A stretch of DNA of 64,000 nt from Eubacterium sp. (lineage in GTDB: Bacteria; Bacillota; Clostridia; Lachnospirales; Lachnospiraceae). Below the pieces are notes generated by a model. It saw only the letters and a program-made list of their open reading frames with translations. It was not told the origin of the DNA and ran no database searches. The stretch's first letter is position 1. Every line of letters starts with the position of its first letter. The position numbers were made by a program, and so were the translations under genes. Below are positions 15,541-23,703 of this stretch, piece after piece. The stretch is taken from assembly GCA_016292095.1 (NCBI GenBank), contig JAEFAB010000007.1, positions 41,240-105,239 on the forward strand. Reading direction: 5' to 3'.

Positions 15541-15759
15541 TGGGACAAGTTAAAAGAAATAGAGAGACTTCCGTGCAAGCTGGCTTGCAAAAGGAAGTCT
15601 CTCTATTTCTTTTTCACTTTACCGCGACTGCGGTAAAGTGAGATGTAGCAACAAAGTTGCGAAATCGAACTTGTCCCAAGGCAAGCAAGTAAGTAAATCA
15701 TTCAATGCGAATGCCGTGAAGTGAGATGCAGCACCATAGGTGCGGAATCGAACTTGTCC
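15541..15759. repeat. Multibranch palindromic intergenic element with a duplicated 41-bp 3' module
   Basis: Outer arms TGGGACAAGTT/AACTTGTCCCA, 21-bp and 11-bp inner stems; 15636-15676 repeated at 15719-15759. Confidence 0.7.
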
Positions 15760-21425: not shown

Positions 21426-21638
21426 AATAAACGCCTCCTTATAAATACCTTTCAATCTTAACATAAATAAAATGCAAAATAAAGGTCAATATCTAAGAAA
21501 AGAATATTGAAACTTATTGGAAATCTGCTATAATGGTGGGGTAGTACCTAATACTTATAGGAGTCTCTCCTAAGACTCGTAAGTATACTAACATATTTTT
21601 CAGTCCGGAACGGTTAAGGCAAGGGGGCCCTAACCGTT

Positions 21639-22022
21639 CTTTGCGTTTAGCTACGAGACACACATACTTAGAAAAGAGGGCTTCTGATGGGAGCTTGCTC
21701 ACAAAAGGAAGCCCTCTTTTCTAAGTATGCGTGGCGACAGCCACGCATGAGGAAGAAGCGAAGCGAATTCCGAATGAGTGTCTCGAAGCTAAACGCAAAG
21801 AGAGAACAGAGCCACGCATGAGGAAGGAGCGGAGCGGATTCCGAATGAGTGTCTCGTAACTAAACGCAAAGAGAGAACAGAGCCACGCATGAGGAAGAAG
21901 CGGAGCGGATTCCGAATGAGTGTCTCGAAGCTAAACGCAAAGAGAGAACAGAGCCACGCATGAGGAAGGAGCGTAGCGGATTCCGAATGGGTGTCTCGAA
22001 GCTAAACGCAAAGAGAGAACAG
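21639..22022. repeat. Palindromic element ending in four 71-bp tandem units
   Basis: Units start at 21739, 21810, 21881, 21952; 22-bp perfect IR 21663-21684/21708-21729; inverted copy of the unit 3' arm at 21639-21661. Confidence 0.9.
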
Positions 22023-22037
22023 CGTACAGGAGGCAAA

Positions 22038-22916
22038 ATGAAAACAGGATGGTTAATTGTAAACGGATACTTAAAAAGTGAAAAATTTGAAGAAATATAC
22101 CACTGGCTTATGGAGGCGGCAGCAAAGCAGGAAATCAAGCTGCAGAAACTGACGAATGACCAACTCACATCAATCTTGCCTATTAGTAGCGGAAAAACAG
22201 ATTGGCGAATCAAACCGGACTTTGTACTGTTCTGGGATAAGGATATCAGACTGGCTCAGATGTTGGAGGCAGAAGGATTTCCGGTATTTAATTCCGCAGA
22301 AGCGATAGAAATCTGTGATGACAAAGCGTTGACGTACATTCGATTGAAGAACACAGACATTGAAATGCCAAAGACCTATATTGCCCCGATGACCTTTTTT
22401 AAAGAATATCAGGACTATGCGTTTCTGATGCAGGTGGAAAACAGCCTGGGTTATCCGATGGTTATTAAGGAAAACAAAGGATCTTTTGGAGAACAGGTCT
22501 ATTTGGTTGAAAACCATGAAGAAGCGGTAAAGAAGATTCAGGAAATCGGACATCATGAATTTATCATGCAGGAATACATTCAGGAATCCAAAGGACGAGA
22601 TATAAGAATCAACGTGGTGGGAAATCAGGTGGTGACGGCAATGGAACGAACCAATGATAAGGATTTCCGTGCCAATATCACAAACGGCGGAAGTATGAAG
22701 CCGTATACACCGACAGAAAAGGAAGCAGAATTGGCAGTCAAAGTATGCAGGTACTTAAAGCTGGATTTTGCAGGGGTAGACATCCTGTTTGGAAAAGACA
22801 ATCAACCAATGCTTTGTGAGGTCAATTCCAATGCACACTTTAAAAACATTTATGATTGTACCGGAGTCAATGTGGCAGATGCAATCATGAAGTACATCGA
22901 CGGGAAAGTTCAGTAA
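22038..22916 (+). CDS. RimK-family ATP-grasp ligase
   Basis: ICDDKALT, PMVIKENKGSFGEQV, QEYI, GRDIRINVVG, DFRANIT, GVDILF, CEVNS; ATG 22038 after GGAGG. Confidence 0.88.
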   Translation: MKTGWLIVNGYLKSEKFEEIYHWLMEAAAKQEIKLQKLTNDQLTSILPISSGKTDWRIKPDFVLFWDKDIRLAQMLEAEGFPVFNSAEAIEICDDKALTYIRLKNTDIEMPKTYIAPMTFFKEYQDYAFLMQVENSLGYPMVIKENKGSFGEQVYLVENHEEAVKKIQEIGHHEFIMQEYIQESKGRDIRINVVGNQVVTAMERTNDKDFRANITNGGSMKPYTPTEKEAELAVKVCRYLKLDFAGVDILFGKDNQPMLCEVNSNAHFKNIYDCTGVNVADAIMKYIDGKVQ

Positions 22917-23703
22917 CAACATATTCAACAAACATAGCAGCAATATCCAAATCGGATACTTCATACAACATGCGGGCGCCAACGGCGTCCTCTATTTCGT
23001 TAAAGACAGCTTTTCCGTCATGGAAAATGAAATCAATTCCGGCATAGTCAATATCAAGTTTACATAAAATCTTTTGAACTAAATCTTTTTCGTAAGAAGT
23101 CAATAAATGCATTGCAACCTGACCGCCCAGACTGTAATTGCTTTTAAAACTGTTTGGAGAGGAACGGAGCACTGCTGCCACAATCTCATTGCCAAGAATG
23201 TAAACCCGAACATCTTTCCCGGGATTGTTGGAACACTTCTGAACCAGGTAAGGTTTTCCGGCTAAGGCCTTGGCCGCCAGACTTTCTTCGCCGGCGTTGG
23301 AAACAAGAAATACTTCACTGCCTCCATGACCGCTACAGCTTTTAAATACTACCGGATAAGAAAATTCGCCGCTGACATAATCTTCAGAATATTTTGCATC
23401 CATAAACGGAACAATACCATCAAGAAAGTGATAGCTCGCCATTTTGTCATTGGCAATTTTAGTAACCAGAGCATTGTTAAAAACAGGGATTCCCTGTTCC
23501 TCAAACAGAGAGGAGATTTCATGGAAACGACTTCGATTGATGACAAAATCCGGCAAATCCGAAAGCAGCTCGCTGATGGACAACTGTTCATAAACAACCG
23601 TTTGGAGTAAAATGCCGTGACGGGCAAACCCCTCCTCTAATTTCTTAATGAAAAATTTGTTCTTTTTAATATCCTTTTCAGAATAAATCAAATAGCCAAT
23701 CAT
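22885..23703 (-). CDS. RimK-family ATP-grasp ligase (convergent paralog)
   Basis: IANDKMAS, PVVFKSCSGHGGSEV, GKDVRVYILG, FKSNYSLGG, GIDFI, FNEIED. Confidence 0.82.
   Translation of the reverse strand: MIGYLIYSEKDIKKNKFFIKKLEEGFARHGILLQTVVYEQLSISELLSDLPDFVINRSRFHEISSLFEEQGIPVFNNALVTKIANDKMASYHFLDGIVPFMDAKYSEDYVSGEFSYPVVFKSCSGHGGSEVFLVSNAGEESLAAKALAGKPYLVQKCSNNPGKDVRVYILGNEIVAAVLRSSPNSFKSNYSLGGQVAMHLLTSYEKDLVQKILCKLDIDYAGIDFIFHDGKAVFNEIEDAVGARMLYEVSDLDIAAMFVEYVVTELSRRCTS

Follow-up and report, generated by a model that had tools for sequence, protein, structure and literature searches.

A putative divergent Clostridiales-1 copy with four tandem 3' modules in the 5' UTR of a RimK-like ATP-grasp gene of Eubacterium sp.

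The window (the whole stretch of 64,000 nucleotides of Eubacterium sp. DNA that was analysed) contains a RimK-like ATP-grasp gene preceded by a strong sigma-70-type promoter, a leader conserved in the genus and an array of four tandem units that ends shortly before the ribosome-binding site (Table 1). A search of the forward strand upstream of the ATP-grasp gene revealed no second promoter-like site besides that at 21507-21534; any transcription of the gene must therefore pass through the array. In the leader, which we treat as context outside the repeat, a small hairpin carries an invariant CUCCUAAG loop, a further inserted hairpin is optional, and a strong intrinsic terminator is formed by GAACGGTTAAGGC..GCCCTAACCGTTC and a T-tract. 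The leader lies upstream of the same ATP-grasp gene in all congeners examined, and covariation was seen in its small hairpin. Comparison of 21541-21650 with Rfam gave no match, and the leader is a candidate for an undescribed attenuator or riboswitch. At its 3' end the ATP-grasp gene converges with a second RimK-like ATP-grasp gene (22885-23703, reverse strand), the two overlapping by 32 bp at 22885-22916; a DUF5662 gene adjoins this pair.

Table 1. Features of the array locus and further Clostridiales-1 copies of this genome (G000). Locations are window positions unless a contig is given (C-numbers, e.g. C17 and C40, are contigs).
Feature	Location	Strand	Details
Sigma-70-type promoter	21507-21534	+	TTGAAA-16-TATAAT with TG extension; 11/12 matches; kept in relatives
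Genus-conserved leader	21541-21650	+	~105 nt; 93-97% identity in 23 congeners
P1 5' arm, single copy	21638-21665	+	28 nt; repeat search
P2 long hairpin	21659-21733	+	repeat search and alignment to Rfam P2
GACA hairpin	21729-21746	+	GCGTGGC-GACA-GCCACGC
Four tandem 71-bp 3' modules	21739-22022	+	Tandem Repeats Finder: period 71, 4.0 copies, 94% matches, score 512
Module boundaries	21739-21809, 21810-21880, 21881-21951, 21952-22022	+	
GNA hairpins	21751-21771, 21822-21842, 21893-21913, 21964-21984	+	GGAA-GNA-GC-GNA-GC-GNA-TTCC
P1 3' arms	21774-21801, 21845-21872, 21916-21943, 21987-22014	+	71 nt apart; repeat search
Ribosome-binding site	22028-22033	+	AGGAGG
RimK-like ATP-grasp gene	22038-22916	+	ATG at 22038; PF08443, E = 4e-41
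Sibling Clostridiales-1 element	15543-15759	+	core 15543-15676, 51.6 bits; second 3' module 15719-15759
Sibling Clostridiales-1 copy	contig C40		66.1 bits
T-box leader and short form upstream of ileS	C17:22120-22795 (L196 421-1096)		T-box leader, 83.6 bits, then short form, 46.5 bits, with 3.2 tandem 78-nt modules
Short forms starting within ~30 nt of stop codons	C26:3095-3158, C26:51138-51202, C63:15844-15907, C6:7827-7890		genes rplQ, rpsI, rplT, etfA-like

An earlier note on this DNA had described the array, a single 5' arm facing four 3' arms, a 22-bp stem, a GACA hairpin and a hairpin that varies only at the N of GNA triplets; repeat searches confirmed this anatomy. The 28-nt 5' arm of the outer helix (P1) is 93% complementary to each of the four 3' arms. 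The arms of the long hairpin P2 measure 26 nt (21659-21684 and 21708-21733), with a perfect portion of 22 bp (21663-21729) and the tip GAGCTTGCTC at 21691-21700; its stem pairs an A-rich with a T-rich side and is therefore terminator-like. A short complementarity between the P2 stem and the start of the ATP-grasp coding sequence (15 nt, 87%) was taken as chance. The 3' half of the GACA hairpin forms the start of the repeat unit, and units 2-4 retain that half alone. The GNA hairpin, flanked in the first unit by CATGA...GAATG, carries the triplets GAA/GAA/GAA, GGA/GGA/GGA, GAA/GGA/GGA and GGA/GTA/GGA in units 1-4. Six of the 71 columns vary among the four units; three of them are the N positions of this hairpin, within which nothing else varies. 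The probability that all three N columns fall among the six variable columns is 3.5e-4. Folding of the array region against shuffled sequences gave z = -10.3 as RNA and z = -9.5 as DNA. A role of the GGA/GGAG-rich modules as CsrA sponge or STAB-SD was considered and is not put forward. The 71-nt unit was found at no second locus.

The earlier note had set a match to a known Rfam family against its own proposal, and such a match exists. Stretch 21659-21780 was aligned by cmscan to all 166 positions of Clostridiales-1 (RF01699) with 39.9 bits (E = 6.5e-7), below the curated gathering score of 48 bits. The outer helix around a long hairpin with a conserved GUGCUUGCAC tip, which characterises RF01699, is present at the array locus, where P1 has 28 bp (7 in the model) and the terminator-like P2 has 22-26 bp and the tip GAGCUUGCUC. 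As in Clostridiales-1, the long hairpin tipped G(CUUG)C is followed by AUGAG...CGAAU hairpins with G-N-A internal loops. The model adds a P3 hairpin with AUGAG...GCGAAU and a P4 hairpin with GGAUUGCGGGAG...; each module of the array contains a single hairpin of this type, accompanied in the element by a GACA hairpin, and one of the two 3' hairpins is missing or rearranged. The signature ATGAG...CGAAT assigns the GNA hairpin to the P3 domain, yet cmscan lays it on P4. Further differences are the length of the short form (~120-165 nt here, 166 nt in the model) and the fourfold 3' module. Two sibling copies in the genome exceed the RF01699 cut-off (Table 1). Judged by this alignment and the shared fold, the element at the array locus is a divergent member of RF01699 that scores below the cut-off. 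When the 64-kb window was searched at the Rfam gathering threshold, one tRNA was reported and neither Clostridiales-1 copy, including the one of 51.6 bits.

A script that searched this genome for long perfect hairpins tipped GCTTGC or GCTCGC returned ten loci, to which the copy on C40 was added as the 11th. The genome contains at least 11 short-form elements, at least six of them with tandem 3' modules. All share one order of parts: 5' arm, long hairpin, short GC-rich hairpin, G-N-A-loop hairpin flanked by ATGAG...CGAAT, and 3' arm. Besides the arrays listed in Table 1, we found arrays of 4.6 x 26 nt on C42 and 2.6 x 37 nt on C9, and tandem 3' modules on C25; arrays of 3.3 x 105 nt (L073) and about six modules (L074) occur in another genome, G020. 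The boundaries of the units vary by locus, and the P1 3' arm is contained in every unit. The amplification of 3' modules suggested in the earlier note is real and recurrent, at six or more loci of this genome, and is undescribed in the literature searched. Four copies lie directly 3' of T-box leaders, namely the one upstream of ileS on C17 and those at L052, L074 and L027; L074 and L052 carry extra 3' modules too. In the short forms that follow rplQ, rpsI, rplT and the etfA-like gene, P2 consists of an A-tract, a stem and a T-tract and resembles the intrinsic terminator of each gene. The location of copies near gene ends and after T-box leaders fits a preference for AT-rich targets, as indicated by the composition of the target duplications described below.

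Searches across the family revealed copies of Clostridiales-1 in 124 of 251 Lachnospiraceae genera and between 0 and 21 copies per genome within the genus, rising to about 75 outside it. Many Lachnospiraceae genomes had at least 10 scored matches and 50-160 candidates, and one contained six copies with identical scores. These genome counts are lower bounds because the initial genome search missed both copies of the window. Matches to the family ends numbered 154 in genome G110 and 75 in G094. The copies of G184, G110 and G094 are near-identical, measure 183-194 bp and reach ~30 nt past the Rfam model, their right end mirroring the left end (TGATnnnnGGGTCAAAAG). Perfect, AT-rich target duplications of 6-8 bp flank all 12 copies parsed in these three genomes. 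In congeners, the sequences on either side of an active G110 copy show no synteny with each other. The earlier proposal of a non-coding, dispersed, MITE-like repeat family agrees with the numbers of copies, the inverted-repeat ends and the target duplications seen in relatives: many non-coding copies exist and their presence varies, with at least 11 here, 0-21 in the genus and about 19 empty sites at the array locus. Clostridiales-1 behaves as a structured MITE of Lachnospiraceae. This behaviour is absent from the 2010 description, which presents the motif as common, four-stemmed and of unknown function and leaves mobility unmentioned (Weinberg et al. 2010, PMC2864571).

The searches revealed no partner transposase. 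Scans for the family ends in G094, G110 and G184 gave only pairs at MITE spacing and solo ends, the latter adjoining ordinary genes; end pairs at IS-scale spacing were not found in these genomes. A scan of 121 genomes for DUF772/IS1182-type transposases gave one match, which was one-sided. At that locus (L202 of G128, 359-1968), the gene for a 512-aa transposase of the DUF772/IS1182 type is followed, 70 nt after its stop codon, by the family-type end TGATGCAAAGTGTCAAAAG; the opposite end is unmatched.

The Clostridiales-1 family shares with bacterial MITEs its lack of coding sequence, its tight fold, its many copies, its AT-rich targets, its inverted-repeat ends and its target duplications, and the presence of the array-locus copy differs between species. 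It differs from them in the lack of a partner transposase among our matches, in internal loops that are conserved between genera, an uncommon trait among MITEs, and in the state of the array-locus copy, which has lost the duplication and the family end sequence. No target-site duplication was detected at the array locus, and its 28-nt inverted arms are unrelated in sequence to the TGATnnnnGGGTCAAAAG-type family ends and are partly host leader. The descent of this copy from a transposed one is for these reasons inferred from homology.

Comparison of the site among congeners revealed that the element is present in only four genomes, this one, G007, G011 and G013. The site is empty in about 19 congeners (16 loci read directly and three judged by match extent), in which the ATP-grasp gene follows 30-130 nt after the terminator. 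The filled sites of G007 and G011 contain two modules each, and the contig of G013 ends inside the repeat. The ATP-grasp proteins of G007, G011 and G013 are 82-86% identical to that of this genome, those of other species at most 74%. A single gain in the common ancestor of the four species would be the simplest reading of these sequences. In G011, P1 and P2 are fully covaried. The first ~11 nt of the P1 5' arm (TCTTTGCGTTT) are the T-tract of the leader, which is also conserved in species without the element; the 3' arms have therefore been made complementary to host DNA. Two of the four element-bearing species contain a second, unrelated tandem hairpin array in the same 5' UTR, located 3' of the Clostridiales-1 modules and before the start codon of the ATP-grasp gene (G007, L077 ~1090-1490; G013, L076 1-380), with GGAGGA-rich units of ~83-85 nt in at least 5-6 copies.

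The helices were analysed with Rfam's model, alignments of orthologues and scripts. Two-sided changes affected 18 of 65 pairs among three orthologues of the array locus, which supports the helices by covariation; another group of orthologues showed such changes in 10 of 50 pairs. In both groups the helices are retained despite complete sequence turnover. In predicted minimum-energy folds of 25 copies, the share of G-U among all pairs was 2.1% for the sense strand and 2.4% for the antisense strand. For tRNAs of this genome, run through the same pipeline, the two values were 10% versus 5.3%, and for four T-box leaders 14% versus 9.3%. G-U pairs are scarce on both strands, so the stems behave as DNA palindromes with no strand preference. 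This scarcity, together with the growth of P1 into host sequence, leads us to favour, tentatively, a DNA-level mechanism that keeps the palindromes perfect over selection on the transcribed strand.

The explanation that we prefer, and think likely to be right, is that the array locus is an old, immobile, short-form Clostridiales-1 copy that arose by insertion, upkeep of its palindromes and duplication of its 3' half, and that affects the mRNA passively. A copy would have entered the T-rich stretch just past the terminator of the conserved leader in the common ancestor of the four species. Its helices would then have been kept as near-perfect Watson-Crick inverted repeats, probably by hairpin-templated strand switching during replication or repair, and the same process may have extended the outer helix into pre-existing leader sequence. 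An ACAG microhomology would then have mediated a duplication of the 3' half, which consists of the 3' arm, the GNA hairpin and a portion of another hairpin, and slippage would have raised the number of units to four; ACAG is common to both junctions at the array locus, which fits microhomology-mediated duplication followed by slippage. Upon read-through of the leader terminator the whole array would be transcribed, because no other promoter precedes the ATP-grasp gene, yielding a very stable 5' UTR of ~390 nt. The ATP-grasp mRNA would likely be affected passively, through altered read-through, processing or stability, and a dedicated function of the array is not likely.

A known parallel in build is the pneumococcal BOX element (Croucher et al. 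2011, PMC3049150), likewise a modular interspersed repeat with an internal module in tandem arrays of variable number. The ends of boxA-boxB(n)-boxC pair, the element is co-transcribed with its neighbours and its orientation mirrors coding bias; the SPRITE repeat of the same study is terminator-like, as are the P2 hairpins of the short forms. BOX has no sequence relationship to Clostridiales-1 and repeats boxB between two ends, whereas here the repeated module contains the 3' terminal arm itself, so that one 5' arm faces several 3' arms.

Selection for a cis-acting RNA device in the 5' UTR would be a different origin of the array, and we regard it as unlikely. The modules would then be binding sites or protective structures with GA-rich internal loops and a GNA triloop, and the 3' arms would serve as alternative partners that tune read-through, processing or stability. 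The array is of necessity co-transcribed with the ATP-grasp gene, and the loops are G/A-rich on one strand, this sense strand being the more stable one in 23 of 25 predicted folds. Copies lie mostly in sense relative to the flanking genes, by 9 versus 2 in this genome and by about 14 versus 4 within the genus, with gene orientation called from stop-to-stop frames. The G-N-A rule put forward for the array applies to the wider family as well: the internal loops of long-form copies are G-N(N)-A opposite G-N-A and are conserved family-wide. Multi-module copies recur between T-box terminators and genes (ileS on C17, L074 and L052). The orientation bias, the one-strand G/A loops, the variation at N positions alone and the recurrence after terminators would also fit an RNA under selection, as would the very stable RNA fold. 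However, the same leader and gene occur without the element in the roughly 19 congeners with an empty site, the number and even the type of modules differ among the four species that bear it, and the family has no consistent gene association. Moreover, the frequency of G-U pairs is 5-7 times lower than in genuine RNAs of these genomes and does not differ between the strands.

Several of these observations could be combined in a further reading, to which we assign a small probability, namely that the short forms are descendants of the MITE that have been domesticated in three ways. The P2 hairpins may serve as terminators of the highly expressed genes rplQ, rpsI, rplT and etfA. In copies lodged between a T-box or leader terminator and a gene, the single 5' arm and the variable 3' arms may form a heritable, quickly adjustable attenuator or stabiliser. 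Fold-back template switching of the hairpins themselves may yield both the arrays and the outward growth of P1. If true, this would be structure-driven repeat expansion, a mode undescribed for bacterial interspersed repeats.

A REP-like nature was also proposed in the earlier note, with folding in single-stranded DNA and possible processing by an enzyme of the HUH class (RAYT/TnpA type) encoded elsewhere. Mini-hairpins of the d(GCGNAGC) type and sheared G-A motifs are very stable in DNA, the stems are almost without G-T pairs and the DNA fold is far more stable than that of shuffled sequences. Clostridiales-1 shares with REP/BIME sequences and their RAYT enzymes the form of short intergenic palindromes, often near gene ends and sometimes arrayed. 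REP/RAYT systems, however, make no target duplication and require a Y1 HUH gene. A search for the Y1 HUH transposase domain PF01797 revealed no match in this genome or in the copy-rich genomes G027 (21 copies) and G020 (13 copies), and genomes with PF01797 carry only 0-2 copies of the element. The active family members have target duplications of 6-8 bp, which elements of the IS200/IS605 and REP/RAYT types are not known to produce. Of the copies in G027, a complete genome, ten were sense-on-leading and nine sense-on-lagging, i.e. no replication-strand bias was seen, in a test that takes dnaA at 516 kb as the assumed origin and is confounded with gene orientation. The proposed HUH substrate is not borne out by these results, and we consider this reading very improbable.

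Equally little credence is given to the possibility that the four units owe their number to faulty assembly of this metagenome-derived genome, which consists of 74 contigs at 91% completeness and whose relatives show assemblies broken at repeats: the four units differ at six columns, each being distinct, which argues against a collapsed or inflated repeat, and two modules are seen independently in relatives. The least credible reading makes the element a small RNA gene in its own right. Rfam and Weinberg et al. (2010, PMC2864571) do class the family as 'Gene; sRNA' and report significant covariation, but neither an own promoter nor a terminator was found, the element sits within a 5' UTR, and the family is multi-copy with target duplications.

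Read as an immobile short-form Clostridiales-1 copy, the array locus would be a repeat-derived insertion in a 5' UTR and not a new class of element. The results further support the view that Clostridiales-1, on record as an orphan "sRNA" family since 2010, is a mobile repeat. Its decayed copies persist, with their helices intact, in the leaders and at the 3' ends of housekeeping genes, and its short forms are a blind spot of standard annotation. The arrangement of one 5' arm facing many 3' arms offers a testable case of how hairpin-rich repeats grow, and it might alter the expression of genes controlled by T-boxes and leaders.
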